Assembly (NCBI GenBank): GCA_050084515.1
Contig: CM114271.1
Coordinates: 15,066,001-15,130,000 of the forward strand
Source: Blasia pusilla
Lineage: Eukaryota
Direction: 5' to 3'
Length of the DNA: 64,000 nt
This document shows, in pieces, positions 13,734-37,820 of this stretch (position 1 is its first letter; each line of letters starts with the position of its first letter). The translations under genes were made by a program, and so were the position numbers. Under the pieces are notes generated by a model. That model had not been told where the DNA came from and did no database searches. It saw only the letters and a list, made by a program, of their open reading frames with translations.

Positions 13734-14046
13734 TGTGGAAAACTACTAAACAAGCATAATTGGTGGAAAACGGCTCTCTCACACACACACCACCATGGAG
13801 AACGAAATTTGCAATGAGAGAATTGAGTGGAGGTTGGTCTTCTTCTCAATTATATAGGGTATGTACAAGCAACCCTAACCCTACCCTTAACCATAGTCTT
13901 GAGTTAGACTAATTATGATTAATTAACTCTAGTTAAGATAATCGTGCTTAACTGACTAACCAAGATTAAGCTTCCCTACTTTGTGTGAGTACCAAATGTA
14001 GCAATTTAGGTGTCTCATGAGCTTGACTGTAACTCAATCTTCAATA
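13734..14046 (-). repeat. Copia 3' LTR (313 bp)
   Basis: Begins tgtggaaaac and is near-identical to 18730-18977; adjacent PPT (ttccccctc on +, 14047-14055). Confidence 0.9.
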
Positions 14047-14049
14047 TTC

Positions 14050-17000
14050 CCCCTCAAGCTCATATCGATATCTCTAACGCCTAAATCCTTTCTAAACATC
14101 TCGAACTTATCTCTAGACAATGCCTTTGTAAAGATGTCAGCAATTTACTGATCTGTACCTATATACACAAGATCAATTTCTCCTGCAAGCACTTTCTCTC
14201 TGATAAAATGATAGTGCACCTCAACATGTTTTGTACGAGCATGAAACACAAGGTTATTAGCAAGCTTGATACTACTAATATTATCTATATATATTACACT
14301 AGGTCCTAAGTTACTAACACCAGTCTCAACAAGTAATCGATGAAGCCACACCGCCTCACATGCTGCATTGGTTGCTCCTCTGTACTTAGCCTATGTTGAA
14401 GATAAAGCAACTGTAGGTAGCTTCTTTGAAGCCCAACTTATAGTTGCGCTCCCAAAGTAAAGGAATAACCAGATGTGGAGTGTCGATCAGACACGCTTCC
14501 TGCCCAATCAGTATGTGGAATCCCTGTAATTGAAAACTCGGAGAAGGTTCAAATTGAAGCCCAAATTGAATAGAGAATTTCACATATTGCATAATCCTCC
14601 TCGCATCATCAAGGTGAGGTTTTCAAGGTGCTTGCATAAACTTGCTCACTAGGCCAACAACATAGCTCAAATCTAGTTTGGTTATAGTTAGATAGATCAA
14701 ACTTCCAACCATGCGCATGTACATATTAGAATCTGCAAGCAGCTCTCCTTCGTCCACTCTTAGCTTCACGCTTTGGTCCAACAGTGTAAAGATTGGCTTA
14801 CAAGCTGTCATACCATATTTTGAAAGCATATGAAGAGCATATTGTCGTTGTAGTAACCACATACTCTCTCCAACCTTGATAAACTCAATTCGAAGGAAGT
14901 ACTTCAGTTCTCCCAAGTCCTTCATATCAAATTTTGCTTGTAACTTCAGCTTGACTTGTTGTACCATTTCTTGAGTACTCCCAGTAATCAAGAGATCGTC
15001 AACATACAACACAATGAGAACTGTATAATCTTTTTCTCTCAAGACATATAACGAGGAGTTAGAATCACATACCCTAAAACCCAACTCTTGTAGGACGTAT
15101 GTAATCTTGCCATACCAAGCTCTTGGAGCTTGTTTGAGCCTATATAGATCTTTCTTCAACCTGCATACGCAAAATGGAAACTTGGAATGCTCGTTTCCAG
15201 GTGGTTGAGTCATATATACCTCCTCATATAAGTCTCCATTCAAGAAGGCATTCTTGACGTCCATGTGATGTAATCTCCACTTCTTACCTAATGCAACTGC
15301 AACCACTATTCTCGTAGACGCCATCTTCGCAACAGGGCTAAATATTTCCTCATAATCGATACTATATTGTTGTGCATAGCCCTTAGCCACCAATCTTGCT
15401 TTGTATCTGTTAATTCTACCATCTTGATTGTGCTTGATTTTGTAAACCCATTTGCAACCAATAGCTTCCTTACCGGAAGGTATATCAATCAGCTCACATG
15501 TTTGTTGATGTCTTAATGCAACAAGCTCTTCCTCCATAGCTTCGATCCATTCAGCTTTACTCGCACCTTCTTCAAAAAAACTCCGCTTCTGCTCTTGAAG
15601 GATAGTCATCTTATATGCATGATGTGTTGCAAGTAAACCTTCATTTATGAATCTATGAATTGGATGTGTAACTCTAATTGATCTACGAAGTTGTTGTTCA
15701 GAGATAGATGCCTGTGACACGTGACTCGAGCTCTGACTAGTGTCAACAGACTGAATATGTACTCTTCCCATCCATAGACTCATAGATTTAATTGATGAAT
15801 CTAAGACCTCTCCTAATCCTATACTAGTACTTGGGAAAGTTGAAGACAATGTCTGGTTTATAGTCATATTCTCTCCCTCAACAGACAAGTTTAAAAGTGG
15901 AATAGGCTCAGATGGAGCATACAATGACTTTAGTTCATCAAAGACAACATCTCGACTAATAATTAGATGCCTAGAGGATGGAATATAGCACTTATATCCC
16001 TTAGTTCCATCAGCATAACCAATGAAGATACATCTTTCAGAATTGGGGTCTAATTTCTGACGTCTCTCAGAAGGAACATGAGCATAACAAATACAGCCAA
16101 ATACTTTCAAGAAGGAAAAATCAAGTTTACTTCCTATGAAGACTTCGAATGGAGTTTTATCATGAACTTCTGCTGTTGGAGTTCAATTGATTAAGAAGAC
16201 TGCACATGCTACATCCTCTGCCCAATACACCTTAGGCATGTTCTTCTCATTCAGCATAGCTCGTGTTGCTTCAGCAATATGTGGATTCTTCCTCTCATCC
16301 ACTCCATTTTGTTGTGGAGTGTAACGGCAAGTCACTTGACGTTTGATGCCATTCTGAAGTAAATAGTCATCAAACTCTGTTGAAAGATACTCTCCTCCTC
16401 CATCACAACGCAATTTCAGAATGTGTTGTCTAGTCTGCTTCTCTACTAGAACTCTGAATGTTTGGAACACTGAGAATACCTCTGACTTGGCTTTCAAAAA
16501 GTATACCCATATATACCTAGAGAAGTCATTAATAAATGAAATAAAGTACTGGCAACCACTAAGGCTATGTTGTGATGCTATCCACACATCATTGTGGATC
16601 CATTCCAATATCTTGGATGCTCTTCTACCTTGCTTTGGAAAAGGAAATCTAGCTTGTTTTTCAAATTGGCAAGCAGGACATACCTCTAACGTAGCAAGAC
16701 TCGCTAATTTAGGGAGTCTTATTACTATATTAGATGATGAAAGACTCTGTAATCTTTGAAGATTCATATGTTCAATTCCTTTATGCCACACATTTAGATC
16801 TGTGACTTATTGGCCGATTTGACCATACATTGTTGTTTGAATCTCTGGCATAGAAACAACTAATTTGAGCATTTTTCCAGATCTAGTTCCTTTGGCTATC
16901 ATAGTCTGGTCATCTATTGTTTCAATGAAACAACCATCTACGTTAAACTTCACTTGATAACCATGTTTTACTATCTCTCCTACAGAGATCAAATTTCTTG

Positions 17001-18214
17001 CAATGGTAGGAACATATAGAACATTTCCAAGAGCACAAAGACCATCTGATGCTATTGGAACTTTACATTGGTATACGTGATATAATGGTGATGTCATCTC
17101 CTGTGAGCACAATTACAAGATCTTTCACTGGCTTCAAACTACTGAACCATTTAGCTTGTGAGGTCATGTGATTTGATGCACCAGAGTGAATGTACCAATA
17201 TGTTATCAAGTCTTTCTTGACCATTGCTCTCATATGATGAGTCATGACCAAGAGATGCTCCGTTTGTGAATGTTGTTGTTCTTGGTACTGCTCTTGGTGT
17301 TGTTGCTCCACATAGTTTTATTGTTGTAAGGCTCATGTTCTCATATTTGCCTTTTTCTTGAAGAAAAAATTTGCATAGTGACCCTTTATCCCACAGTAAT
17401 TGCAAGATCCAGAGAGCCTTTGTTGCTGATCTCGACCCCAACGGTTTCCATCATCACCACCTTGTGATTGTGTCTAGTACCGATTTGTAGTTGATTGACT
17501 GACGTTATATTGAGTGCCTCTTCCTCCATATGCTTGATATCCACCACGACCATGGAATTTTATGCCATGACCTCTGCCTCTGTTTGATCCATAACCTGCA
17601 AATAGGGCACTCTCTTGCAGACTAGACGAGCTACCGCTGCCTGCTAGGTGCATCTCTCCATTGATCAACAGAGGAACTAACTCTTGAAAGGTTGGATACT
17701 TCTCTCTCATAGAGATAGAGGTCTCAAAGGACTTGTAATCCTTTGGAAGGCCTTGAAGAGTGAATAAAATCATATCATCATCTTCTACTGTCACTCCAAT
17801 GCTATTCAACTGGTCAACAATATGTCTGATACTCAAAATATAATCATTGATGCTCTACGATCTTTTTCGCACTTCGTTCAATTGTTGTTTCAATTGAAGC
17901 TTTCTGGCCTTTGTAGATGTGTGGAAGATCTTTTCTAATGCATCCCAGGCCTCCTTCGGAATATCAACATCTTGGATGTGACCTATCATTGGCGAATTGA
18001 TCGTTATTGAAATGTAGTGGATTACTTGCCTTGCGCGTTTGTTCCAAGCGTGAACATTCAAGTCTGTTGAGTCACCTTCTAGCTTGGCCTCATCACCTAT
18101 CACAAGCTCTCATAGTTCTTGACTCATGAGAAATTTTTTCATGCGAAACTTTCAGACATTGTAATTCTGCTCGTCTAACTTCTCGCCTGTGATTATTGTT
18201 GAGGAATACTCCAT
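14050..18214 (-). pseudogene. Copia gag-pol polyprotein with multiple stops and frameshifts
   Basis: ATG at 18214 (MEYSSTIITGEKLDEQNYNV*KFRMKNFL). ORF pieces 17855-18103, 17474-17836, 16807-17311, 16183-16791, 14623-16110 and 14145-14351. Confidence 0.92.
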
Positions 18215-18717
18215 GATAAATGATTTCACTCACAAAAACATAATTTCATGCTTTCTACTGCTCCAATTGGAGCATAGACCACTCCTATACAGAATTCGAC
18301 CTGAAATTTTCCGAAAGTGATGAGCTATATGAAAGAACTAGTCGAAATTGGTTTGTAGAGAGCAAATTGTACAACTTTTCTTCACTAATTGCTCTTTCCT
18401 ACACTAAAATTGCTACTGCATGAGCTCACAGTGTCAAAATCGAGCAATTTTGGGTGCGTTTGAAAGCTCTCGATAAGCTCTACAAGATGGCTACAACTTT
18501 CCTTCTAATTGTTCCAGTCAAAGCGGACCCAGACGGCTGAATCGACCGGGAAAGCCCTAAAAAATGCCTCCAAAGTTTTATCATCGTCAAAGCTCCACCT
18601 GAAATCTGCACCCATTAAGCTCTGAATTAAATTTCCTTCTTCCAAACTGAAAATTTTCCTTCTCTTGCCTCTCTTCTCTCTTCAAACACCAAGAATTTTA
18701 AGTGATATTCTCCTCCC

Positions 18718-18729
18718 GCTCTAATACCA
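18718..18729 (-). promoter_or_regulatory. Primer binding site (tRNA-iMet type)
   Basis: gctctaatacca is the reverse complement of TGGTATTAGAGC, one mismatch from canonical TGGTATCAGAGC, and abuts the LTR. Confidence 0.85.
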
Positions 18730-18977
18730 CGTGGAAAACTGCTAAACAAGCATAATTGGTGGAAAACGGCTCACACACACACACACCACCATGGAGAACG
18801 ATATTTGCAATGAGAGAATTGAGTGGAGGCTGGTCCTCTTCTCAATTATATGGGGTATGTACAAGCAACCCTAACCCTACCCTTAACCATATTCTCGAGT
18901 TAGACTAACTCTGATTAACTAACCCTAGTTAAGACAATCGTGCTTAATTGACTAACCAAGATTAAGCTTCCCTACTT
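18730..18977 (-). repeat. Copia 5' LTR, truncated at its outer end
   Basis: Matches 13734-13981 only; the last ~65 bp of the other LTR have no counterpart. Confidence 0.88.
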
Positions 18978-20859: not shown

Positions 20860-22770
20860 TAGGGGGTGGTTTTGGGGTCCCAATATATATGCGTGAATAT
20901 GTTTCATTTATGTGTGGATCTACCCGTATATTGGGGAAGATCGATGTTGTGTGGTATGTAGATGTGACCAGCAATGTGGGTTGTGTAGCGATGTGTATGC
21001 GCACGACAGCATTGTGGGGTCACAGTGTATACGCGTGAGTGTGTTTCATTTATGTGTAGATCTACCCGTATGTTGGGGAAGATTGGTGTTGTGTGGTATA
21101 TAGATGTAATCAACGATGTGTATGTGCACGACAGGCAATATTGAGCCCTTTCCCTTTCAGATACATATCTTTATTGGGAGTGTATCACCCACGCAGTATA
21201 TGACTCAACACAAGCTAGTTGTTAGATTCTAGTCAAAGCCTAGGTTAGATCATGCGAAGGTGCATACTCGGACGAGTCCTATGATGTGTTGGTAGGAAGT
21301 ATGTTGTTGTATCCCCTTTATTTCATCTTAATTTTTGGGAGGAGAGGATTTCTTATCGATCAAGATAGTGATCAGGTGATGGACAAGTGAGCCATTTACC
21401 TGTGTGCTTTGCAAGGCGTAGTGTACTAGTGGTGGATCACAATGTGATATCGTGATCATGTTAGCAAGATTCACATGTAGTGAGTGGCTAGTTGGATAGA
21501 ATCAACCATGCGGAGGACATCCTATGAGCAATTAGTCCCACAGAGCTACATGTCAGAATGAATATTTCTTCCCATGGTGCGGAGACCTCTTTACCGTTGT
21601 TGGGTATATAGGAGTGTTGAGCTCATTTGCATAAGAATGCAGATGAGCTCGTGATGTAGGTGAGGAGATGTGCCTGTGTTTCAAAGCAGACAGAGTGAGG
21701 TGACAATCATGCTTTTGGAGTATAGATTTGATATCTTCAGATACCACACTTGTTTTATGTGAGCATCTAGAGGAGGGCGCGAGAGTGTTAAATCTCTCTG
21801 AAGGGATCAACACAATGGGTAGGTGTAGTGTTGTAGGATTATATTTGGATACATTGATATCTCCAAGTAGAGTTAGATAAGATAGATACGCGGATGAGCA
21901 TATGTTGGAAGACGTATCTGATATGATGGCACCGACGGTACTAGATGATTATAGAGTGGTAGATTATCTTAACTAGATATGATGTTTGCTATTTGGAGTT
22001 AGGGGGATCCAAGTGCCAGCCAGGGGGACGATTATGTGGTCTTAATATATATGCGTGAATATATTTCGTTTATGAAATTATGAATGGATCAACCCGTGTG
22101 TTGGGAAGATTGGTATTGTGTGGTGAGTAGATATAACCAGCAATGTGGATTATGTAGCGATGTGTACGTGGACAACAACTGCAACATCTTAGTTATCTGA
22201 CAAGGAGTGTTCTATTGTGCCAATGACATAGGGATCAACGGGTTGTTTTGGTGTAATTTTGTCCAAAGATGTCGGATGAGGTTGGCAATATGTCGGTTGC
22301 ATCAAGAACATTGTTTTATAAGATTGCCCTATTTTGGTCTTTGTCACCTAGATGATCCGTTGACCAAATCAACAATCATCTAGTAACTAGTTTTGGAGGC
22401 TATTTATAGAGAAAGAGCATTTTGGCTCTTCACAAGCTATAAGAGAAGAAGAGAAGGCTTTCCCAAACCATCTTTCCTATATTCAGCCTTAGAGCACCTC
22501 ACTTGCTTTGTGTATAGTAAGAACTAGGGTGCTAGCGTCCAAATTCCTTGATAGCAAAGGATGGATGTGAATCGATGTTCTAATGTAGATTTTAGGAGTG
22601 GAGTTGGCCATGTGAGTCATTTTTTCTATGATTTTGTTATTTGATCTCGATGTACATGCGTGAGTATAATTTGCTTATAAGTGAATCGATCCGTATCTTG
22701 GGAAGATCAACGTTGTGTGGTGTGTAGATACAACCAACGATGTGGATTGTGTAGCGATGTTTATGTGCAC
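20860..22770 (+). repeat. ~130-bp subrepeat of family A (copies near 20890, 21035, 22060, 22660; also 37690-37820)
   Basis: Recurrent ...ttatgtgtggatctacccgt.t.ttgggaagat...ttgtgtggt.tgtagat...cgatgtgg.ttgtgtagcgatgtgtatg.gcacgaca. Confidence 0.75.
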
Positions 22771-23965: not shown

Positions 23966-24334
23966 GAAATTGCATCACTCTATTGAGTGCAAAGGTAAAA
24001 AGAGAGGAAGAGAGGAAAGAGAGAAAAGAGAGAGGAAAAATCTAGGGAATCACTTTTTTTTTGAAGAGAGTTTCCATTGGGTTGAAGAGAGGAAAATTTT
24101 CATATATTGGAACCTTTTTTTTTTTTCCTCAATCACTTCGAGTCCGACGAGTTGCAAATTGCACAAAATTGAGAAAACTGAAAAATCAGTGGAATCATAA
24201 GTGTGGAACCAATCACTTTTTGCATCCAAGGTCTGGAAAAAATCTGTCATTTGCGCGGGGCTGAATAGAGTTCAAGCTCAAAGTGAAGGTTGAGAAAAAA
24301 ATAAAAGTACAATCTAAAACCTCATTTTCCATCC

Positions 24335-27300
24335 TCAAAGTGGTTTGTTTAAAATACTTCGAACTTCTTTGAGGGACAGAATTGGTTGGTGGATTCCTAC
24401 TCCTACCTCCGACTCTCTTAAAACTACCAGCAACACATAGTACATGTGCTTACAAGGGAAATACCTTTTGCCACTTGTCTCTCTTTGGACAAAGTCATCA
24501 CATGAACATGTGGGGAAGCAACAGATGTGCACCACATACACCCCTGTGACACTTGAATTTACAGTGTTGTTCTTGACCCAATACATCCTTCCTATTCCAT
24601 TGCCATTGTGGACATCTTTCGTGGCGATGATCTCCATTTTTGCCTCCCGAGCTGATGCAATTCGCTTTGCTCTCTCCACCGTTGGCCTGCACATTCTGTT
24701 TCTCTTCACCCCATTTCTAGACTCAAATTGAAATAGTGGATTGAGATCATCCACCTTCTACATGTTGACATCAATCTTGGGTTGAATACGAAATGCGAAG
24801 GTCTCTGTAATGCGAACATGCTCCGAACCTCCCCCGTCTACGAGTGTGAAACCGGCCGGCACTTGTAAGATTGTCCACTTCGTCTTGAGTGCAGTTCGTA
24901 CCTGCGGCGATGGGCCAAATCATGGGGGTATTCCCGGGAGCTCCAATGGCATCCGGATAAGACTTACGGAAAGCGCAAGATTCATTTGGGCAGAAGAAGT
25001 ACTTCAATTGATCCCCGGTCCTCGTGAAACGATCAAAAGTTTTGAGTCCCCAAAACCCAGACAGTGGTCGTCCAGTCCTTGTACAGTTCTTATTTAGGAA
25101 AGTGCCGCATGCTCTCCTTATGCCATCAGATCCTGCCCTGCAGGTGGGGTCCATGTCCTGGGTTGCTCCAAGATATATGCCACCGTTTTAGGTTGCAATC
25201 CACCTCCATTACCGGAATCCCATATTGTTGAACCACCCTAGTGATAGGATGTTGCGAACTTCCAGCAATGGAGGGCTTTTGAAATAAAAAATTCACTGAT
25301 TTTGGAGAAGTTACTCCATCACGGATTTGGGACGGGTCCGGGGTCCGCGAATACCTGGGCGGCGTAATTTCCTCATCCAAATCAATCACCGGATTTGTTC
25401 CTCGATCGCCTCTTCACCGCTCAAGTCAAGATACTTATCTGGTCTCCACGAGTCTCGCTCGAACTGCTCTACCACCATCTGTATGGGACATCTTGAAACC
25501 CGCCCACGAATATCCCCACCAATGTGTACGTCTTGCTCGAGTGGAGTTCCAGCTACGCACCGGTTGAAGGCTTCCCCATACATTTTTTCATCACCAGATC
25601 TCACAGCCGCCCTGACGTAGAGCTCATAGATCGACGGCCCCTTTCCTTTTGTTATGCCTTTTGTGAGGAAGATATGGGATGTCGCAGATCAGTAGCATTG
25701 CTCTTGCCTGGTCTTGTTGGCATGCCTCCACAAGTGAAATTCGTTGGCATGCTTGTGACGACCTCCAGGAGGAATGAACACTTTCTGCTCCACTTGTGTT
25801 GGGGCAGAGGGCATTTTCATGAACGTTCAATCCCTGCAACGACGGAAATGTTAGAAGGGAACGAAAATAACTCAGGAGTCAAAGAAATAAGCGACCTGTC
25901 GGAACCAGATGGGTTGTAGGCCCGAGATATCCCATGAACGACTCTGCGACCCGTCGGGTCCCGACGTGTTGTAACCTTAAATCCACCTACTGCAACCCAT
26001 CGGAACCAAACGGGTTGCAAGGTCAAGGCATCCCATGAACGACTCTGTGACCCGTCGGGTCTCGACGGGTTGCACCAAAAATCTGGATGCAACCCGTCGG
26101 TTTCCGTCGGGTTGCACACTCAGGCAACCCGTCGCATCCGACAGCTTGCTTGGTTTCTTCGGTTTGAAATCCATATAGTTCCCACGCTTCTCACCCTGAG
26201 CTACAACTTTACAAAAAATTCTCAGCGTGAGCTTGACAACACAAAATAGTGAACTCACTTGCCACATGAAGTTTCCCCATTGTCTCATACGTACAGTCCA
26301 CCAACTCAACCGAGAGCACAACTCTTTGTACTTCCCCTCAATCGCATGCTTCCTCCACCACCCATGAAGTTCTTCCTGGCATTCCATGGCCTGCTTCAAG
26401 GTTTTGTTGTCCTTGCAGTGTTGGAGTAGAGTGACATGCTCTGTCCTCTTATTCTCCTTGATGCAAGATTTGGTGTACCGGGTCACAGACTGTTGCCAAT
26501 GGGAAGCATCCGACCTTTCCCTCTCCGGTTGAACCTCTCCACCCCAGAACACTTCCCGGATAGCAATCCACCCAGGTTGTGCATTGTCTGCCATGAACCC
26601 ATAAATTTCCGAAGGAGGTGGTCTTTTTTTTCCTTCACCACCTCCAATAAGAGTAACCAAAGACATCTTCAAAGCGCCAACGTCTTACGCCTTTACTTCA
26701 CAGACAAATATAGTTTTGAGTCCCTTCTCCACATGGTCATAAACATGAGCACCCATCGTCAACCATCCGTTCAAGACTCAGTAGCAAATATCAAAGCTCA
26801 CCCAGCCTCCGTAAAGATCTTCCCCTTCCCTCATTCGATCTATAAGATCGAGGCCACTCGACGGACCTGTGGTTGACATTTTGAAGACATAGGCCCTGGA
26901 TCCCTCGCCTCCTTGGCCCATGAACTGCCATCTCTGAATGAATGGAAATCTCCAGTTGGCATTGATTCTGGCGATGGCATCCATTTCGGCCGTCTTTCCA
27001 TCCAAAACCCGTATTTGACGCAGAAAATTCCGGAAGCATTCAGGATCAGCGAGAAATGCGAGATTTTCCCAGAGTTGTTTCTCCTCAACCGCCGTGATCT
27101 CGCCTTGTCCAGGGATTCCAAGAAATTGTTCACAAATTTGTGATGCGGTTGTGAGCTTGATCACTCCGGGCTTTGAACCCGGAGAGTTTCTGTAGAACTC
27201 GGCTACTTTCTTCGCCACATCCTCCTTGATGTGTCTCTGAATTGCATCGATCACAGGATGAGTGTGGGAGCCAACATGAACAGCCAGCCTTGTGTACTCT

Positions 27301-28274
27301 GACGTGGAGCCCAAGTCGTGGACAATGAAAAATATGTATGCAGGACACGCTCCAACGCAGAAGGGCGATGCCTGACAATGAGGACATCGATGGCCTCCCG
27401 ACGGTATTGTGGCACCCACCTCGTATGGAGTTTCTGCATTCTTGGGGGGGAATTGCAACGTATTGACTCGCCAGTTGCGCTCTAGATACGGGCATGCTGG
27501 ACTTCTACACTCCAAGGCTCCCAGGCATTGGCGGCGGGAGACAATCCAAGGACCATCTGGAATGGAAGCACTGGTCCGTTGAAGCCTGCACCATCGATGA
27601 CAATCAGACTTTCTGTCCATACCCTTCAGGCATCCTCCATCCTTCTTTTGAGCACGAGCAGCAAGTGGAGGCAACTCAAAAATGCAATTACCATCGTACG
27701 TGGGCGGTAGCTCGTCGACAAGAATATGCTTGAACATTTTCAAGGCTAGAGACAAAAGCAAACTATTGCCTGATACTCGCAAGAGAAACGAGTAGGCGGA
27801 CAGAGGGGCCGATTGGTGTCCGACAGATCCACTGAGGTTGATAACATCCGGAATCTCTTTAGGAAGAAGAACATTGTTACGAGCGTGCAAAGTTGGAGTC
27901 GAAGCCGGATCTACCGAGCTAGGAGTTGCAAACGTAGAGCTCGGAGCACTAGGAAATTCTAGACCGTCTACTTGGGAAACAGAAAAATTCAGGGGCAGGG
28001 AGTAAACTCTGTATTGACCATTTGCTAGAGGTAGGAGATTCCATACTTTACGGTCCGAGGTCACTAGCTGGACCGTCTCACCTATTATGTCTTCCGTACC
28101 GTCCACCCTAACATCTCTGGATACAAAGATGGTTCCAATTTGGAGAAGAAATCGAACAGACAGAAAATTTTCATCCACTGCTATGAAAGACTCACGAGCT
28201 TAGGGTCGAATGATTTTTGATTGAGGAAGGGCCGCCAGATGACTGCCACAAGTGAGCTTAACATAATTATCCAT
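24335..28274 (-). pseudogene. MULE/Mutator-like transposase: GCM-like Zn domain, DDE core, C-terminal SWIM; intron 25834-26258
   Basis: ATG at 28274 is in frame with ORF 26778-28178 (RQCLGALECRSPAC...CPHC...C..HVGSHTHP). Core motifs WVSFDICY*..TMGAHVYD, FMADNAQPGWIAIREVF, DASHWQQ; after splicing (caa|gtgagt...tgcag|gga) NTSGAESVH; SWIM CSCDDF..PCKHMYYV. In-frame stops and frameshifts present. Confidence 0.85.
25891..26149. repeat. Array of 6 degenerate 27-bp palindromes in the transposase intron
   Basis: e.g. gcaacccgtcggtttccgtcgggttgc (26089-26115) and gacccgtcgggtctcgacgggttgc. Confidence 0.85.
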
Positions 28275-28554
28275 TCCCAGAAATTTCGTACGGGAGGAGG
28301 GTGAGAATGAGAAAGAGAATCAAAATGAGAATGAGAATTTTTAATTTATAGTGAATAGGAAACAGATACTCCTAACAGATTTTTACTGACAAGATGAATT
28401 CGGTGGGTGACATTGTCTGACACAATGGATCCATTCAGAACACATTCACTCGTTGCAATATGTTACCGGATTTGGGAAGCAGAGGGTTGCGCATCACACT
28501 TGGAAACCGTCGGAGTCCTGGTAACTCAAAGATAACCCGAAGCTAACCGAAGCT

Positions 28555-29031
28555 TGCAACCTGTCGGCTTCGGACGGGTTGCACGCTTCTGCCAAACATT
28601 GTCGAAGCGAGCAACCCGTCGCTCTCCGACGAGTTGCTCGGATACCGTTTCTTGCCCGAAGATGCCGGAGGCGTGCAAACCGTCTGTTCCCGACGAGTTC
28701 GCGGGTGCCTCGCTTATTTGCCCAAACACGGCGGAGACGCGCAAAATGTCGGTCTCCGACAGGTTGCGCGGGTACCTCGCGTTCTTTTTCGAAGAAGACA
28801 GAGGCGCTCAACCCGTCGGTCTCCAACGGGTTGCTCGCGCACGTGGCGACGTACCCAGGATGGCGGAGGCGCGCAACATGTCGGTCTCCGACGGGTTACG
28901 CGGGTTCCTCGCGTTCTTTTCCGAAGACGACGGATGCGCTCAACCCGTCGGAGACCGACGGGTTTCTCGCGCACGTGGCGACGTACCCAAGATGGCAGAG
29001 GCGCGCAACCTATCGGACTACGACGGGTTGC
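28555..29031. repeat. Array of 8 palindromes (~66-bp period, ~132-bp higher-order unit) between the divergent genes
   Basis: Copies at ~28556, 28611, 28675, 28741, 28807, 28873, 28939 and 29005. Confidence 0.9.
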
Positions 29032-29120
29032 CATTTTTCACGTTCGGACTTTCGTAACCTCCGGCACGGCGCGGTCGAAAGTACGACGAGACCCAATGGT
29101 CAGCCCAACGGCTAGAAAAG

Positions 29121-29128
29121 TATAAATA
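29121..29128 (+). promoter_or_regulatory. Putative TATA box of the accessory gene
   Basis: tataaata followed by a pyrimidine-rich leader, ~300 bp upstream of ATG 29421. Confidence 0.5.
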
Positions 29129-30635
29129 GGGCAGAAATCGCTCATTTCCGGTTTCTCATTTCGCGATCTTCATTTCTCACTCTCCCGCGCAACAGCTGAT
29201 CAGATACGAAGGGGCGTTTCACACGGTGACACATTGCGAGTCGATAGGAGGGAACGAGAGCGAGACGGTTCGACCAAACGACAGCGAGACGGTTCGACTG
29301 AGCGATCGCGGGACGATTCGAGCTACCCATCAAGGCGATTCGAGCTCCCCATCTCAACATCAGCAAGGTGACCGATCAAGGGATTCTTCGTGGACATAGG
29401 TGGAGGCATTTCCGGAAAAAATGACGAGGAAAAAATCACAAGCCAACAAGTCTGGGAGCTTCACTCCGAAGTCCATTAGGACTCCTACGTCAGCATCTCC
29501 TGGGCCTCGTTCGGCGAATGAAATTAGGCAGCAGGAAATCAAGGAGCGGGAAAGGGAAGCGAAGATGCACAACCAAGTGCTTCTTGCGAGACGTGTTCAA
29601 GAGGTGCTAGATAAACAGAACGTAGAGGCCGAGACGTCGCAGGCCTTGAAGAAAAGGATCGCCGAAGAAAAGAGAGAAAAGAAGCGTCTGGACGCGTCGG
29701 TGAGGAGGGCAGAATTGGCTAAAGCAAGGAGGGAAAAAGTGATAGCCATTGACGATAGCCTTGCCCATCCAACCGCTAGTGTTGAGATGCGGGAAATGTC
29801 CCCCACGAAGTCCGGGGACACAATCAACATAGTGGAAACGCCAAAAGTTGAAATCGATGACGACGAGGTCATGAGGACCGCCAGCGTGGAGATGGTGGAC
29901 ATGGCCGAAGAAGCCGGAGAGCGGTCATTCTCGACTCCAAGCCCGGCGGAGGACATCGACCTCTATCGGATCGACGAGTTTCCAGTCGATTTGCTAGCTT
30001 CATCTCGGACAAGTTAGTGGTCAAGAAACCGACCCCATTTTCGACCGGGTAAGAGAGGATGGGTTTTTGAATTATGTGAATTGCAATTCATTGGGAATTC
30101 AGTGTAGCTTATTCATCTTGTCCCGGTTCTGACAGGTGGTAAAGCAGATGGCACTCATGGAGGGCCACAACGCCCGAGGATTCCACTCTACCGATTGCGG
30201 ACAATGGAATACGTCCGCAAAATTCAGTCCGACGAGGACATCGGGAAGCTTAAACAATCAGCGGCGACAGCATCCTACGTCGACAACTTTCCTCCCTTCT
30301 ATATTCAGCCTTACGACGAGCATGGAACCCAAGCTTTGGTTACGGAGGAGGACTTGGAAAAGCTCGACACATTCTGGAGGATGCGAGACCAGGATTTTAG
30401 AACGCAAGTTGAGGGCACGGAATTCATCTGGATGAGGAATCTGCATTTCTTCATCTGGGATGGAAATCACAGGTTCATGGCATGGACCAAGTTTGCGGAG
30501 GAGCGGCCCAACTCATTGGAGGCACATTTCTGCGTGAAGGTAGTGGTCCTTCACCCATTCCCTCATCACATGGCGACGGTGGAGATGGCAATGCATGCCA
30601 TGAACACGTGAGTATCTTCTTGCTTTTACACTTAC

Positions 30636-31340
30636 GCAACTCGTCGGACTCCGACGAGTTGCTCGATGGATGAATGGGTTGGGTTTTTTTTTGCCGAAAG
30701 CAACTCGTCGGACTCCGACGAGTTGCTCGACAGCATGTTTTTTCGGATGTTTTTTTAACAATGCAACTCGTCGGACTCCGACGAGTTGTTTGATTGACCA
30801 CATATTTAATTAGTTTTTGGCCCAAAGCAAACCGTCGGAGTCCGACGGGTTGCTCGACTCGCCGCCTTGTCAGGATGGGTTTTGAAGAATGCAACTCGTC
30901 GGACTCCGACGAGTTGTTCGACTGACTACAGCTTTAGAAGGTTTTTTGCCCAAAGCAACCCGTCGGAGTCCGACGGGTTGCATTCGGAAGTTGGTTCCCC
31001 AAATTTCGCGTCAAATTGCAAGTTTACATTCAATTGCGCAACCTGTCGGACTCCGACGGGTTGCTATGTTCACGCTAGTATGTTCAGTTGCACAACGCGT
31101 CGGAGTCCGACAGTTTGAAACTTGGCATTAGCAAATCTGAATGCAATCCGTCGGACTCCGACGGGTTGCTATGTTCACGCTAGTATGTTCAATTGCACAA
31201 CCCGTCGGAGTCCGACGAGTTGAAACTTGGTATTAGCAAATCTGAATGCAATCCGTCAAACTCCGACGGGTTGCATCATTTAGCTCGTTGCTAGAATCTG
31301 ACCTTGAGCTGTGACGACCCGTCAGAGTCCGACGGGTTGC
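30636..31340. repeat. Array of 12 palindromes in accessory-gene intron 2
   Basis: Perfect 27-bp palindromes GCAACTCGTCGGACTCCGACGAGTTGC at 30636 and 30700; further copies at 30763, 30827, 30891, 30955, 31038, 31092, 31143, 31196, 31248 and 31314. Confidence 0.95.
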
Positions 31341-33447
31341 AAGAGAACATGTAATTTCCTGACGGGTTGAGTTTGGATGTGCAGGATTGTATCGGAGGGG
31401 AATGTCACCCACCACTGGATCCACGACTGCGATCGGGTGAGGAAGGTGCTTACGACGCACCCGGGAGAGTTCAGGGGGTTCTTGGGCGATGCCCTTGTCA
31501 ATCAAATGCTTGCAAAGGGTGCCCAGATTAAAAAGAAAACTTGGGCAAATAAGTTTACTTCCCAAGATGCAGCCATAACCATCCTTTGCTGGTCGAAGAT
31601 TCAGGCCGCGAAGAAGAGCGCTGCACTGGAGCTGGAGCCGAGGGAGAAGGTATCTGCGTCTGAGCACGCGAAATTCATCCAAGCTGCAGTATCTGCAGCA
31701 ACGAAATACACAGCGAGCAAGATGCAGCGATACATCAGCATTCTCAACCCCGAACTTGGTCCGGAGTTCTACAAGGAGCTAAAGGCGATTATCAAGCGCC
31801 AGCGGAAAAGGGATGAAGATCCGCATGGTCGGATTGGGGAGAAAGTGTCCTGGATTGCATGCATCGGTTTGCGTTGTCCGGCATAAGCGAGTTTAGAAGG
31901 ATCCGACTGATGAAAATCAGTCTCGAGGGCACAAAGGCCCAGAAGAGGGCGGCACACCATCCTCCGGGTGTGTCCGATCCAGTGATCTCCCAATAGCTAC
32001 GTGAATGGTCGTTCAGGGACGCGTTGCGGGTTATCGGGAAGTCCGTGGTGGAGGGTCTGCAAGCGGAGCTCAGAAGATTAGAGCCCATCCCGGATGAAGC
32101 AAACCTTGAAAGTTCTGGAGATTTCGAGGTTTGGCTCGACGACATCCGGACAAGCCAACCAAAACCAGGATTCAAGACCATGTTCAAGGTTTGCGTCCTC
32201 CTCGGCAGAGCTTGACGAAGAAGTAGAGGGGAACAAACGGGATCAAGCGAAGAAGAAGCGAGATCTCTGAGGGAGCATGCACGGGCGGATTCGTTCGCTC
32301 GCTAAAAGCTACCCAACGGATGGTCTTCATGTACCTCGCCCGGTGTAAGAATGCAGTACGTGGGGAAAATTACCGGCGACCTTGAAATTGTGGGCTTCGC
32401 GCACGGATGCGAGACATTCTCCATGTACGACATGGAGATGGGGCAAAGACATGTCCGATTGGGAGGTGGAGAATTTCCCCATTTGGCTCGACTTCAACGA
32501 CCTTGAAGACATCACCGATAAGGATTTACGAGTGCTTCATGATGCAAAGTGGCCTCGGGACAAGACGACATCCCCAATTTCGTCGGCCAAGACTTCTTCG
32601 GAGGGAGATGAAGAGCAGCCACGAGACAGTTGAGTTGGCTTCCAAGGTCCGCACGACCAAAGACAAATCCACAAAGATGTCTCAAAGGCAAGGCGAGGGG
32701 AGGGAAAAATTCAGAGGCCGAGTCTTCCCAAAGAGAGGTCAAGATTCAAGGCCGAGGCGGAATCGTCCCGCGGCGGGGAGAGAGGGTCGGACCAGGTCCT
32801 CGCGAAAAAACCCCACGAGTCCGAGGTCATAGAGACCCGACAAGCCGTCCGCAGACTAGGGAGAAGCGGAAGCGAGAGGTGCCCGGGTTGTCCCAAGGAG
32901 AATACAGTCCATCATCCTTGGGAAGACACAGACAAACAAACGACCGGACAAGCGTCCTCCTTCAATTCACTCCTTTACTGGATGAGCTGAAGAGCTTCAG
33001 TTCTCAAGCGTCGACACCAGCCATCGAAAAATTGACAACGCTGGGACGGAAGCTCCAACGAAACGGGCACGCTACGTGGACGGTGAATGGAGTGGTCAAA
33101 GAGATTGCGGTGGATCTCTTGATCGCCGATCTGCCCTCGGGGTTGCAACTTTGGGGCGAGAATCCGTCGGACGAGGTACCTGAGTGGAATGTGCCGCTCT
33201 CTTATGACTAGATTGCGCTTTTGTTCTCCTTTGCAGACGCCTATCTGAGTGACAGGGGCTGCTTCTTGGTGTTGACTGGAGGGAGAGAGGACGAGCTCTT
33301 CAACCTCCAGTGGGTCAAGAGGTTGCTAAAGTGGAGGACGGCGCAATCGTGGATCATCAAAAACGAGTACCCACTCCGATCCACGACGAGTCAGATTCGG
33401 GTAAGGCTCAATTCCTGTACTATAATGAGTATAATGAGTGTCAATCT

Positions 33448-33759
33448 GGGTTTCTTTTGTCCGTGAGCAACCCGTCGGAAGGTGACGGGTTGCTGGATTA
33501 GAGCAGCCCATGCTCGGATGAGAGCAACCCGTCGGTTTCCGACGGGTTGCATCTTTCCCACATACACAGGGAAAACCGCGGTGTACCTGCAACCCGTCGG
33601 AACCCGACGGGTTGCTCTTGCTTTTGGTTTTTCCCAGTTGCTTTTGGTTTTTGGATGCAACCCGTCTGATAGTGACGGGCTGCTCTCAGCTTTAACATGG
33701 GCTGCTCTAGGCAAAGCAACCCGCCGCCTTCCGACGGGTTGCTCACGGACAAAAAACCC
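33448..33759. repeat. Fold-back inverted repeat containing 5 palindromes in accessory-gene intron 3
   Basis: 33448-33550 is the imperfect reverse complement of 33657-33759; central palindrome at 33589-33615. Confidence 0.85.
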
Positions 33760-34439
33760 GCGGACTCGACAGTTGATCCAAAGTCGATTATTGAAAATGT
33801 TCTCAAGCCGACTTCTTTAGTTTCGACATTGTTTCCAACGTCTGATTTATTCTGAGATGGACCACTTCCTACGTGTTGCTTCATTCGCCCGAGCACACTT
33901 TCCAGGTGTTCAAGATCTAGGATCCTGTGGATCCATGCTCGATGGGTAGCTTAGATAGTTTGTACAATTCCCGGAATTTACATGCAAGACAAGACCCCAC
34001 CGGGAGGAAGGAAAAGTCGCCGCCCTGATGCAAATGCTCATCGAGCTCTGCTCAAGGCCGGGTGACTTGGTGTTCGACTTAGTGGGACTTTCAGGGGCAA
34101 GTATCAAAGGCGTCTGGCATAGTGGCAGGAACATTCTCTGCCTCGAGGGAAGGCAGGAACTGTTTGACCTTTGCAAGGAGGCAAAGGCAGAATACGAAAG
34201 GCTCGTTGGGGCGTACAACTCTCCACCAAAGCCGAGAGCACCGGTTCCAGAGCCACCCTTGGTAGTGACTCCATCGTCACTTCCAACGATTCCAAAAATC
34301 GGGAGGGCAAGGCCGAAAGTAATTTTGCAAGAGCTCTCGGACAATGACGAGTGAGTTCAAAGAACTCAACGACCCAGCTTGACTGCAGCGTTTGGAATAG
34401 GGAGTTTTTTTATAATGAGGCAAAAGATTTCATAGAATA

Positions 34440-35550
34440 GATCAAATGTACAGTTCCGAGCTATTTTCGGATGATATAAAGCAGAAGATTTTTTCGAACG
34501 ATGGTGGTGCTTGTAAAAGTTTGCTACTCTGCTAAGTGGTAACACGATGTATAGAGTCTGACACCTGCCCGGTGCTGGAAGGGTGAAAAGGATCGTCTAT
34601 GTACTCCGCGGACTTCTATTTTGCAACCCGTCGGATTTCTCCTGCTTGCAACTTTTCACTTTTTGACCACTGCACCCTTTTTACCACTTCCAGGAAACCT
34701 GTCTGATTCCGAAAGGTTGCCTGATCAAACTCTTTCCATGTTGGTCCAACTTAAGAGGCAGTCTGGCGGGCTTCTTTCCTTGGCACCTTCCCCTCAACTC
34801 GTAAAGGCAGGCGTAGGCTTCTTTTCTTCTCTCAGACGTGTTGGATTCCTACTACCTGTGCGATTGCCATAATGGTATTACCGGGGACGGAGCAGATATT
34901 GATACTGGATGGGTGTCACATTGCAGAGCGTACAAGGTATACTGCCGAGAAAGGCGGTGGGACTCAAAACAGGTTACATGGGACCGTTATGGTGTACCTA
35001 GGGGGGGGCCTAGGCTCTCGAATTCGCCAACATTTTCGATCCCCGTCTACAATCGGCCGGAGGAGCCACTTGTATCCCAGGACATTCCTTTGGTATCACA
35101 TCGTCAGGAGAGTTAGGAGTAAATTTGTAGATGACGAGGTGAAGAAATCATAGACTAAGTCAAATGTACATTTCGAGGTTCCTTCGGAGGTAATAAAGGG
35201 CGAGATTTTTCAACCCATAATGGTGTTTGTAAAAGTTTGCTAGAATATTTTTTGGACTTGTGGATTGTGTTCTTTTAGCTACTCAGAATTACATTACGCA
35301 ACCCGTATGATTCGACGGGTTGCAAGTTTTTGCTTTTGCCCACCGCAACTTTTTTTTACCATTTCGGACAACCCGCCGGATTCCGACAAGTTGATCGCTT
35401 GAGTGATCGGACTCTATCCCGGTGAGACCAACCGGCGCATTGTGGCGGGCTTCTTGACTTTTGGCTGCGTTCCCTTCATTCGTCAAACCAGTTGTAGGCT
35501 TCTTTTCTTGTCTAAGATGTGCAGGATTCCTACTACCTGTCGGATTGCCA
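34440..35550 (+). repeat. Diverged tandem duplication (~700-bp period) downstream of the accessory gene
   Basis: 34443-34527 ~ 35161-35242 (caaatgtaca...tgtaaaagtttgcta); 34622-34870 ~ 35298-35551 (palindromes...gtaggcttcttttctt...ggattcctactacctgt..gattgccat). Confidence 0.75.
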
Positions 35551-36639
35551 TTTCGGATTCCCAACCTGTTAGATCGTCGTGGGTGCAGGGTGGAAGAAAA
35601 TCACTTCTAAAAATCTTTCCTTTCTTATGGTGAGCTTTCTTACGGGTTGGGAGGGGTGCAGCTTCTCGGTTTCTCAGCCTTAGGATCTGATGTGTTCACA
35701 TTTCACAAAGTTGGTCTTGAGCAGACACCATTCATAACCAACAGAAAGTTGGTTATGGGGCAATTTAGGGGAGGCCATGATGCAGGCAACAATCCCTGCA
35801 AAAAGAGAGGTTGGCATCCGGGTGGTCCTCTAACAAAAATACCAAGGGCACTAATTTTTGTTGACCGAGACAGGGAATGTTAAGAAACTTAGGCTCACAT
35901 GGAGAGTGATGGAAAATGTTTAGGGTGGTCTTATGATGTCTCCTTTTTTCTCGCCCCCAGGAAAGAGGAGGTTTTTTTAGGGCCAAATGTGAACCACTAA
36001 ATACTCTCTTCTAAAGATTTCATGAATTTGAAAGCAAACAAAAATTTCAAATATGTCAAAAAGTTTTGAAGAGAGGAGGCGGATTTGGCCCTTTTTTTTT
36101 AAGAGAGACTCTCCTCTCTTCCTCTCTTCCTCTCCTCTCTTACTCTCTCCTTCCAGAATACCAGCCCCCATTCTATTGCATGGTCAACACTGATTGTTCT
36201 ATATAGTGCGGCAATCTCTGCGGCAAGACAATCCACTCAAACATAAAGTCAAACCTCCCATCAACATATGCGGACTATCCATCGACATCGGTGCACGTGT
36301 CTCCATCTCTAACACTCTATTGCAGACCGTCAACATGGATCATCCATCTCACCTCCAATTGGAATAATGCTAGTGAGTCAAACTCTTTTAACGGCTCTTA
36401 AGGCTCATCAAGCTCGTCACAAATCACAGTCCCCTCTTGGAAACAACAAGTTGCGAAAATCTCTCCTTACACTCTGAAACCATCCTCCATTCACTACAGA
36501 GGTTTTGTGGTTGACCACCTACGATGTAGTCTTTGCTAACCTCGTATTGCCACAACTCACGACATCATATGCGCTCTCCAACCTCATAGCTTTGGCCTAC
36601 TACATCTCGTTGGCTTTGTTACATCTTAGTAGCCGATAG

Positions 36640-37820
36640 GTAGAGATCTATTGTGGTGACGGCATAGAGAGCCAACAAACTATCTTGGGTGTAACTTTGT
36701 CCCGAGATGTTGGATAAGGTTGGCGATAGGTCTATTGTGTCGGGAATGTCGTTTATGGCGATTTCCTTATTTTGGTTTTAGTCCGTCAGGTGACATGTGG
36801 ACGTTGGCAGGGCTATTTTTGGGGGAAGAGCCTTTTGGCTCTTCCCAAGGGTATAAGAGTGAGGGAGATGACTTTTTCAAGCCATCTTTCTCATGTTGAG
36901 GCTTAGGAGCACCTCTCTTGCATGTATGTTTGTGGGTGTGTATGAGCTAGGGTGCTAGCATCTGGATTCCCTCATTGCGGAGGGTGGATGTGGCTCAATA
37001 TGCCACTGTAGATTTTGGAGTGGAGTTTTAGGCCGGATGAGCCATTTTTACTACTGTGTTTTACATGAGATAGATGCGAGGGGACAGGGAATTTGTTGGT
37101 TACAAGTAGGCAATCGATTTGCCTCAATGAGGAGCCCCTGGAGTAGTTGGTTGGCATTTTTAATTTTTTTGTTCAGAAGGTTGTGCGCGGAAATGCTATC
37201 TATTTTTCTCAGATCTTGGTGGTACGGGTTGATGGGGGACAGTAGCAGAGTGTAGCAATAGGAGCGCTCAGGTGTAACATGGAGAGTGTCATCGGTGGGT
37301 GAGTAGTGAGTGTCAAAAAAGGCGGGAAGAAAGAGAGAAACCATAGTTAGGTCGTGCAAACCGTCAAGATGTTAGTTAGGTTGCGGTCGTGCTAGGTTTA
37401 GGTTGCTTGTTAGGTCGTATGTAGAAGACAAGAGTACAGTCATATGAGGCAAGAGTACAGGCATGTGGACGGCCGAAAGGAGTTGGGGGCGTAGAAGGGT
37501 GTGAGCGGGGCATACCGGGTACTACCGGAAGTAGAGCGGATGGAGGAGGAGATATGGCCATAGGGGTGCAGGCCAAGTGCCCCCCTCCCCTCCCCTCCCC
37601 ACATTTATTACTCATAGGGGCACGGGCCAAAGCACCCACCCCCCCCACTTCTAGTCATTATTTCCCCTCCTTGTTGTGGGGTCTCGATGTATATGTGTAA
37701 GTTTGCTTGATTTATGGATGGATCGACCCGTGTGTTGGGAAGATCAGCATTGTGTGTTGTGTGATGCGTTGATGTGACCATCGATGTGGGTTGTGTAGCA
37801 ATGTGTATGCGCACAACAGC
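36640..37820 (+). mobile_element. Family A fragment
   Basis: Colinear similarity to 7165-8290, plus the 130-bp subrepeat at 37690-37820. Confidence 0.7.

Follow-up and report, generated by a model that had tools for sequence, protein, structure and literature searches.

The 64-kb stretch of DNA analysed here (contig CM114271.1, positions 15,066,001 to 15,130,000 of the forward strand; the window) carries an intron-containing gene on its plus strand, a transposase gene on the minus strand upstream of it, and arrays of a 27-nt palindrome that recur along both. The plus-strand gene is referred to below as the accessory gene. On balance, we read the region as a decayed copy of the accessory gene of a very high-copy DNA transposon, a gene that probably combines a ParB-like part with a beta-class methyltransferase-like part. 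An earlier reading made from the letters alone (the sequence-only reading) had described the locus as a ParB/Srx-like domain fused to a bacterial-type beta-class amino-methyltransferase within a transposon gene. All of the motif strings that it cited were found on the plus strand where it had placed them. As a whole, its observation is partly confirmed and its interpretation partly supported, as detailed in the following sections.

Structure, decay and transcription of the accessory gene

The accessory gene begins with an ATG at 29421 and ends with a TGA at 34352–34354 on the plus strand. A model of six exons, separated by five canonical GT..AG introns, gives 1,051 codons across 29421–34354 (Table 1), the splice sites of the model having been picked to preserve the frame. 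Starting at the ATG, the frame runs open through 621 codons and across four introns of the model. The breaks lie in exon 5, where the frame changes near 32445 and at least once more between 32631 and 32950, and where two in-frame stops stand, TGA at 32631 and TAG at 33209–33211. The sequence-only reading had cautioned that the protein would have to be corrected for frameshifts, and the frame changes, the TGA and the TAG of this copy bear out that caution. The copy in the window is a pseudogene and cannot make the protein; therefore intact copies would have to supply any function in trans. About 10% of the depth in a DNA run of the same species (X1) lacks one base at 32445, and leaving out this base keeps the frame open as far as 32631. 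Because this fraction of the DNA carries a one-base variant that extends the frame, some copies of the family appear to be less decayed than the one in the window.

Three RNA runs of the same species (X19, X20 and X21) and the DNA run X1 were mapped at a likeness of at least 90%. Two reads of X19 and three of X20 (none of X21) show a GT..AG splice joint between 30607 and 31385, in agreement with the earlier description of the gene as intron-containing. Since these spliced reads join 30607 to 31385, they fix intron 2 and tie the exon with the DGNHR motif to exon 3. The RNA depth is 0 at 33526–33826, within the last intron, in all three runs, and depth is present on both sides. The RNA of the accessory gene at 31.4–34.4 kb has the first mate almost always on the minus strand, and the RNA over the upstream transposase gene has it mainly on the plus strand. 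Because the RNA mates show opposite strands over the two genes, these are transcribed divergently, each in sense, provided that the first mate is complementary to the RNA, which is the case for most stranded libraries. The transcribed molecules come from members of a large family: 78,708 DNA contigs of run X1 mapped onto 9 kb, which makes the element family very high-copy.

These data also bear on whether the exons form one gene. The pieces could have been brought together by a Pack-MULE-like capture of fragments, in which case the ParB-like and methyltransferase-like pieces would be non-functional or separately transcribed. The joint between exons 2 and 3 is the sole junction seen in RNA, with one of the five introns read-confirmed and no other reaching the listing threshold in the three runs, and no RNA read in these runs ties the ParB-like exon to the methyltransferase exon. 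Expression is low and stems mostly from other copies (167 of 209 reads of X19 are only 90–95% alike). All of this counts against a single transcript, as do the broken middle of the gene in this copy and the several-fold variation of the X1 DNA depth along the region. On the other hand, canonical GT..AG introns join all the pieces into a frame that stays open from the ATG through four introns, the variant at 32445 lengthens this frame, and all parts lie on one strand with sense RNA from 31.4 to 34.4 kb. The total of 1,051 codons is also in line with the 1,104 aa given for a brown-algal fusion protein in the main text of PMC12477816. Taken together, we consider the capture of unrelated fragments very unlikely, and a single transcript across all six exons would be expected from an intact copy.

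Two short segments draw reads from other sources. The first, a fragment of about 55 nt that closely follows the gene (34526–34582), resembles bacterial-type (organellar) large-subunit rRNA, matching positions 1820–1851 of Rfam RF02541 with an E-value (E) of 0.048. It draws rRNA reads with loose ends, which inflate the RNA depth in the 34429–34700 bin. The second consists of 43 nt of exon 2 (30185–30228) coding IPLYRLRTMEYVRKI, which are common to a far more abundant foreign transcript. In each run, 28–48 reads match it, their first mates lying on the plus strand and consensus loose ends flanking the match on either side; the transcript differs at 30209 and 30212, and both differences are synonymous in the frame of exon 2. 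The source of these reads may be an expressed, diverged paralogue.

Table 1. Features of the accessory gene, its host element and the rest of the window
Feature	Position	Strand	Remarks
Exon 1	29421-30012	+	ATG, then charged low-complexity, coiled-coil-like N-terminus; 197 codons
Intron 1 donor GTTAGT	30013	+	Predicted; no read confirmation
Exon 2, candidate ParB/Srx-like domain	30136-30607	+	3' end fixed by spliced reads
Intron 2, 777 nt, GT..AG	30608-31384	+	5 spliced reads; contains palindrome array C
Exon 3, helical-looking region	31385-31844	+	Acceptor fixed by reads, donor predicted
Exon 4	31997-32188	+	Predicted; GT..AG introns 31845-31996 and 32189-32356 keep the frame open
Exon 5	32357-33400	+	Broken K/R/E-rich linker, then putative N-terminal methyltransferase half
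Last intron, GTAAGG..ATAG	33401-33958	+	Predicted; contains palindrome array D
Last exon	33959-34354	+	Motif X-I-II/III end of beta-class N6/N4 DNA methyltransferase, Pro-rich tail, TGA stop
Palindrome array A	25946-26115		4 copies, between transposase open reading frame pieces; arm pairing 9-11 of 12
Palindrome array B	28556-29031		7 copies, intergenic between the divergent genes; period ~66 nt (132-nt dimers)
Palindrome array C	30636-31340		11 copies in intron 2, periods 64 and 105 nt
Palindrome array D	33467-33742		4 copies in last intron
Weak single palindromes	34694 and 35368		2 copies, downstream of the gene
Transposase gene	24338-28199	-	In open reading frame pieces (26781-28199, 25980-26684, 24338-24757, others); divergent from accessory gene
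Possible left terminal inverted repeat, GA-rich	24000-24032		Matches 36112-36134 inverted
Possible right terminal inverted repeat	36109-36148		Partner of 24000-24032
Ty1/copia retrotransposon	13735-18977	-	RVT_2 E 3.4e-74; integrase and gag-pre-integrase domains at 14623-16806

Methyltransferase-like and probable ParB/Srx-like parts

The last exon contains LMQMLIELCSRPGDLVFDLVGLSG at 34025–34096 and GRNILCLE at 34124–34147. It matches the Pfam family PF01555 with an E of 0.0015 and 18.9 bits, over profile positions 168–220 of 221. Four of its five PHROG matches are (DNA) methyltransferase families, with best E of 1.5e-5 and 2.9e-5, and all 11 PADLOC matches are MTase_II or MTase_III. The NCBIfam model PRK13699 is matched with an E of 0.16, and M.RsrI (E 0.07) and DpnA (E 0.24) make up the top four of the six PDB sequences matched. 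A tblastn search with the last exon retrieved 103 phage records (best E 3e-4); of the 25 matches listed, 24 coincide with annotated DNA methylases and one is in an unannotated record. Plasmids gave 45 records, and among the 40 listed, 39 matches lie under DNA methyltransferases and one under no feature. The concordance of PF01555, PHROG, PADLOC, tblastn and PDB sustains the earlier proposal of a beta-class amino-methyltransferase remnant at the C-terminus. Less favorable to it, the PF01555 gathering cut-off of 26.7 bits is reached neither by the last exon nor by a read-through of both halves (16.2 bits), no homologue was found for the last-exon region in a read-through carrier compared with long proteins, and a pattern scan with this exon of viral and prokaryote-genome contigs gave no relative. 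Judged by its sequence, the last exon nevertheless shows clear homology to the C-terminal end, with motifs X-I, of the beta-class N6/N4 DNA methyltransferases.

Seven comparator enzymes were fetched, all of them PF01555 members (E 3.7e-24 to 1.2e-46). The match of the last exon falls at the C-terminal end of each of the seven, and their DPP[YF] motif stands near the N-terminus. Because the last exon matches the end of PF01555 and DPP[YF] is N-terminal in all seven comparators, the permuted order of motifs typical of the beta class is supported, as the sequence-only reading had proposed. In detail, the window copy departs from the SAM-binding (S-adenosylmethionine-binding) motif I, FxGxG (D-x-F-x-G-S-G). 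It reads DLVGLSG, with Leu at the first Gly of GSG, which is Gly in the seven comparators, and with Val in place of Phe; the Ser and the last Gly are kept. Motif X reads K-V here vs K-P in the comparators.

The other half of the methyltransferase would have to lie upstream, in exon 5, where VDLLIADLPS (33110–33139), YLSDRGCFLVLTGG (33242–33283) and SWIIKNEYP (33347–33373) are found. By eye, the last two resemble motifs V–VIII of the PF01555 family. The candidate for the catalytic motif IV, (D/S/N)PP(Y/F), reads DLPS (33128–33139), whereas all seven comparators have DPP[YF]; the flanks fit, VDLLIADLP corresponding to vdliitDPP. From DLPS to PGD there are about 125 codons in the spliced model, and the DPP[YF]–PGD spacing is ~142–153 residues in the two smallest comparators, by hand count. 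A hidden Markov model (HMM) was built from the seven comparators, themselves the best matches of the last exon; on it the last exon scores 42 bits, a circular result as the comparators were chosen by that exon. The best local HMM alignment of the upstream half falls on motif IV, with "ipdgsvdliitDPP" against "VKEIAVDLLIADLP". Two results speak against this assignment: at −4.1 bits and an E of 0.39 (Z=1), the alignment falls short of significance; and 32951–33400, its TAG read as X, gave no profile match in Pfam, NCBIfam, PHROG or PADLOC. A HMMER scan with 32612–33208, mostly low-complexity linker, gave 0 matches in protein collections. The upstream half is thus consistent with a methyltransferase and unproven. 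Of the earlier claim of a motif IV, the order and the spacing were right, while the alignment at E 0.39 and the DLPS in place of DPP[YF] fall short of it. The same reading had suggested a dead enzyme. DLPS and VGLSG do depart from all seven comparators, and this is seen in a pseudogene copy alone; by these motifs, the methyltransferase-like domain may be weakly active or inactive in this copy.

Exon 2 carries the candidate ParB/Srx-like domain. IPLYRLRTMEYVRKI lies at 30180–30224, FFIWDGNHRFMAW at 30447–30485, and the latter includes DGNHR at 30459–30473. In LHFFIWDGNHRFMAW, DGNHR follows a hydrophobic strand, in the manner of a DGxHR motif. We take as diagnostic of ParB/Srx proteins and their relatives (DndB/DGQHR, DUF262 and DUF1015 among them) a phosphate-binding motif with a conserved arginine, which reads GxxR or, in the DndB-like branch, DGxHR. 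The pattern DG.HR has a single occurrence in the six-frame translation of the 64-kb window, and it is this one in the accessory gene. The sole Pfam match of exon 2 is DUF1015 (E 0.029–0.034, 13.5–13.7 bits vs a cut-off of 25.8) and the sole NCBIfam match is the DGQHR domain TIGR03187 (E 0.092, 12.5 bits vs a cut-off of 58.85). Both matches cover the DGNHR motif, and both families presumably belong to the ParB superfamily, with the ParB/Srx fold.

An alternative accepts the methyltransferase remnant alone as real and takes the N-terminal region for another domain, in which DGNHR and its flanks are similar to ParB/Srx by chance. No significant match to a ParB family was obtained by profile, structure or pairwise search, and the matches at E 0.03 and 0.09 rest on one short motif. 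The searches that disfavor a ParB fold are as follows. Exon 2 has no PF02195 match, whether Pfam is scanned at E≤1 or at E≤10, and it has neither a PHROG nor a PADLOC match. Its best PDB matches are amylases (E 0.44–0.49). In tblastn it finds nothing at E≤1 among 50,697 phage records; at E≤10 it finds one phage (2 records, a virion structural protein) and, among plasmids, four unrelated genes. No homologue of exon 2 among longer proteins was found in protein collections, and a pattern scan of viral and metagenome contigs gave no relative. The fold prediction failed as well, the single-sequence AlphaFold2 model of exon 2 being unusable (mean predicted local distance difference test score 34.4, predicted template-modelling score 0.22). 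Exon 3 has no family match in Pfam, PHROG or PADLOC scans.

A chance likeness has to be set against several observations. The motif occurs once in six frames of 64 kb and does so inside the accessory gene, and the lone Pfam and the lone NCBIfam match of exon 2 are both DGxHR-bearing families. The same two-domain architecture, with a similar size and orientation, is described for a brown-algal transposon in the main text of PMC12477816, and the palindrome arrays on the element recall those beside red-algal ParB accessory genes in the account of 10.1101/2025.02.11.637652. We therefore hold a chance likeness to be unlikely, while giving it some real weight, and consider a ParB fold in exon 2 likely, mostly on the motif, its context and precedent. 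The ParB/Srx assignment of the sequence-only reading is plausible, being favored by DGNHR and the weak DUF1015 and DGQHR matches, and it finds no support in PF02195, PDB, PHROG, PADLOC or tblastn.

Host transposon and palindrome arrays

The transposase region on the minus strand has a Cys/His-rich N-terminal part and, by eye, D...D...H (DDE-like) patterns, which we take to recall those of Mutator transposases. A C-terminal CxC...CxH corresponds to the SWIM finger PF04434 (E 0.0071, 16.3 bits vs a cut-off of 19.6). Besides SWIM, the transposase open reading frames have no MULE, DBD_Tnp_Mut or other Pfam or NCBIfam match, and the 473-aa frame has no homologue in protein collections. From these sequence features, the transposase is probably Mutator-like; elements of that type are marked by a MULE DDE transposase domain, a C-terminal SWIM finger, long terminal inverted repeats and a target duplication of 9–11 bp. 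The G+C content is raised over 24–38 kb of the window, and an inverted match of 17 nt, exact and in low-complexity GA-rich sequence (E 0.003), links the two possible terminal repeats (Table 1). No target-site duplication was found at the candidate ends of the element. The GA-rich 17-mers may mark the ends, and the element would then span roughly 24–36 kb of the window. That the accessory gene lies inside a DNA transposon, on the strand opposite the transposase, is borne out by the SWIM finger, the high copy number and the opposed RNA.

A retroelement origin of the gene was considered and is unlikely, as the introns are retained and one of them is spliced. A family of dispersed repeats, 67–78% identical and in direct orientation, flanks the element on both sides (7144–7696, 22184–22628 and 36617–37143; also 20869–21010, 22634–22770 and 37671–37820). 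These direct repeats are unrelated to the element and do not represent its terminal repeat.

The 27-nt dyad GCAACYYGTCGGNNNCCGACRRGTTGC, allowing at most 3 mismatches, has 28 matches in the window vs 0 expected, and all 28 fall within 25946–35394. The tandem arrays have periods of 64–67, 105 and 128–132 nt overall. The palindromes fold as 12-bp hairpins (z −4 to −7.4), and arm variants with CTC...GAG and with CCC...GGG both keep the dyad, although, given the tandem duplication, such variants represent few independent events. Searched for exactly in contigs of metagenomes, prokaryote genomes and viruses, the pattern gave 0 matches. A miniature element present genome-wide was considered as the source of the palindromes and set aside, none being found outside the element in the window.

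Two further observations concern the arrays. At 28710–29010, in the intergenic array B, the DNA depth of X1 is 126 vs thousands in the neighbouring intervals; this portion of the element may vary from copy to copy. Joints in DNA and RNA link array to array (25988–33589, 28876–31043 and 28583–30955), and they are best read as repeat cross-mapping or as deletion derivatives.

Arrayed in the intergenic promoter and in introns, the 27-bp palindromes are candidate ParB sites. The arrays could instead serve the transposase, which would count against such a role. More broadly, the gene could be as described and the arrays unrelated to it, being transposase-binding repeats, nested miniature elements or small-RNA hairpins. 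The array at 25946–26115 does sit in the transposase gene region, and the array-to-array joints reveal recombination or cross-mapping of the kind seen with ordinary repeats. The palindrome at 30689–30731 is matched by RNA reads whose flanks are foreign, so that it also occurs elsewhere in the genome. Set against this, every palindrome of the window is in the element and none in the copia, LINE (long interspersed nuclear element) or other repeats of the window; the arrays occupy internal positions (promoter and introns) and not subterminal ones; and paired changes preserve the dyad symmetry. In red algae, inverted-repeat arrays likewise accompany a ParB accessory gene, as described in 10.1101/2025.02.11.637652. 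We regard arrays unrelated to the gene as a sizeable possibility that stays below even, and retain the palindromes as candidate sites of the ParB-like part.

Proposed role and relation to known systems

For an intact copy of the accessory gene, we propose a six-exon spliced mRNA and a protein of ~1,050 residues. In order, this protein would have a disordered N-terminus, a ParB/Srx-like nucleotide-binding domain with DGNHR, a helical middle, a charged linker and a C-terminal beta-class (N6/N4) methyltransferase-like domain of bacterial or phage descent. The ParB-like part would recognise the 27-bp dyad sites, which recur every 64–66 bp in the bidirectional promoter and the introns. Binding to these sites would concentrate the methyltransferase-like domain on the element, which this domain would then mark or shield. 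Alternatively, binding could tune the two divergent genes in the fashion of KorB, a ParB-family regulator on plasmid RK2. A bolder proposal is a complete self-recognition module of the plasmid or phage type at work in a eukaryotic nucleus, in which a ParB-like clamp dependent on nucleoside triphosphate would load at parS-like palindromes and spread over the element, and the degenerate methyltransferase domain that it carries would no longer methylate and would act as a DNA/SAM reader or as an anti-silencing shield. We rate this proposal as quite unlikely; if true, it would represent a ParB/parS system in a eukaryote and give transposons a new means of distinguishing their own DNA from that of the host.

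Comparable genes are known from algal transposons. In Ectocarpus, the 21.5-kb family Sola1-1_Ec32 has a gene that runs opposite to its transposase and encodes a protein of 1,104 aa with a ParB-like part and an N4-cytosine/N6-adenine methyltransferase; the study suggests that proteins of this type act on the element that encodes them, by binding and modifying it (PMC12477816). The gene in the window resembles it in lying in a DNA transposon opposite the transposase and in its size. The host is a Sola1 element there, whereas it is probably Mutator-like here, and the two genes are likened by architecture (PMC12477816). Palindrome arrays are not mentioned for Sola1-1_Ec32 in the passages of that paper that were consulted.

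In the red alga Bostrychia, Plavaka elements carry accessory genes of which PAG2 combines an N6-adenine methylase with a SET domain, and PAG3 an N-terminal ParB-like domain with a 2-oxoglutarate-dependent oxygenase, as described by Petroll et al. (10.1101/2025.02.11.637652). The same account reports tandem inverted-repeat arrays that adjoin PAG3 and are proposed as its sites, and PAG homologues in Mutator, Plavaka and Zisupton elements, and notes that most copies are degenerate and weakly expressed. What the window shares with PAG2 and PAG3, so described, is a transposon-borne accessory gene of prokaryotic flavour and arrays beside a ParB-like gene. It differs from them in that the ParB-like and PF01555-type methyltransferase parts are in one gene here, whereas there the ParB-like domain and the N6-adenine methylase are in separate proteins, and from PAG3 in that the arrays are found in introns too, not just beside the gene (10.1101/2025.02.11.637652).

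Fusions of a ParB-CTPase fold with an N6_N4 methyltransferase are reported to be enriched in phages and prophages (PMC12704722). As presented there, they share with the gene in the window the domain pair of ParB fold and PF01555. In the present searches, the closest relatives detected for the last exon were PF01555 enzymes from phages and plasmids. Unlike the gene here, the prokaryotic fusions described in PMC12704722 are short and intronless. A ParB_N match was found in none of the seven nearest enzymes fetched. A bacterial or phage origin followed by intron gain, as the sequence-only reading suggested, is a reasonable proposal and in line with the literature.

Other eukaryotic methyltransferases offer more distant parallels. 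The Marchantia N4 methyltransferases MpDN4MT1a/b are described as clustering with prokaryotic enzymes (10.1101/2021.02.12.428880), and, like the rotifer N4CMT (PMC8885841), they are prokaryote-derived eukaryotic amino-methyltransferases. By the descriptions in these two sources, on which the comparison is based, both are host genes with shown activity (10.1101/2021.02.12.428880; PMC8885841). The term ParB is absent from the text of the Marchantia paper (10.1101/2021.02.12.428880). Chlorophyte and chytrid Dam enzymes joined to a helix-turn-helix (HTH) of the ParB type, from phage ParB-terminase loci, are reported in PMC4738411. They resemble the gene in the window in joining a eukaryotic methyltransferase to a ParB-derived N-terminal module. 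As described there, however, their methyltransferase is Dam/M.EcoKI-like and not of PF01555, and the fused part is the HTH of ParB and not the DGxHR domain (PMC4738411).

Transposon accessory genes that join ParB and methyltransferase parts are therefore already published for brown, green and red algae, and the novelty of the locus was rated too high in the sequence-only reading. New here are the 27-nt palindrome arrays specific to the element in the window. The precedents found in the literature for such genes are algal and prokaryotic cases alone; if the organism is a land plant, this type of gene would extend beyond algae. If a transposon encodes a protein that binds and modifies DNA, it could use it for its own marking, protection or regulation, an idea raised only recently, for algal giant transposons. 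The locus adds a family with a fused ParB-like/methyltransferase gene, a probable Mutator host and a sharply defined candidate site, which makes the idea of self-marking testable.

The rest of the window holds features separate from the element. Rfam and tRNA scans of the window gave nothing at gathering level. A 445-aa open frame at 52346–53683, with no Pfam match, encodes tandem Pro-rich repeats (VEPIPPGGEAPRVEPTPPPRE...) with a DNA period of 72 nt. A G+C-rich segment (~55%) at 9877–11673, with overlapping open reading frames of which one has a weak RVT_1 match (E 0.0022), is probably a LINE remnant. The Ty1/copia retrotransposon is flanked by 247-bp direct repeats (13735–13981 and 18731–18977) that are 94% identical and presumably represent its long terminal repeats.

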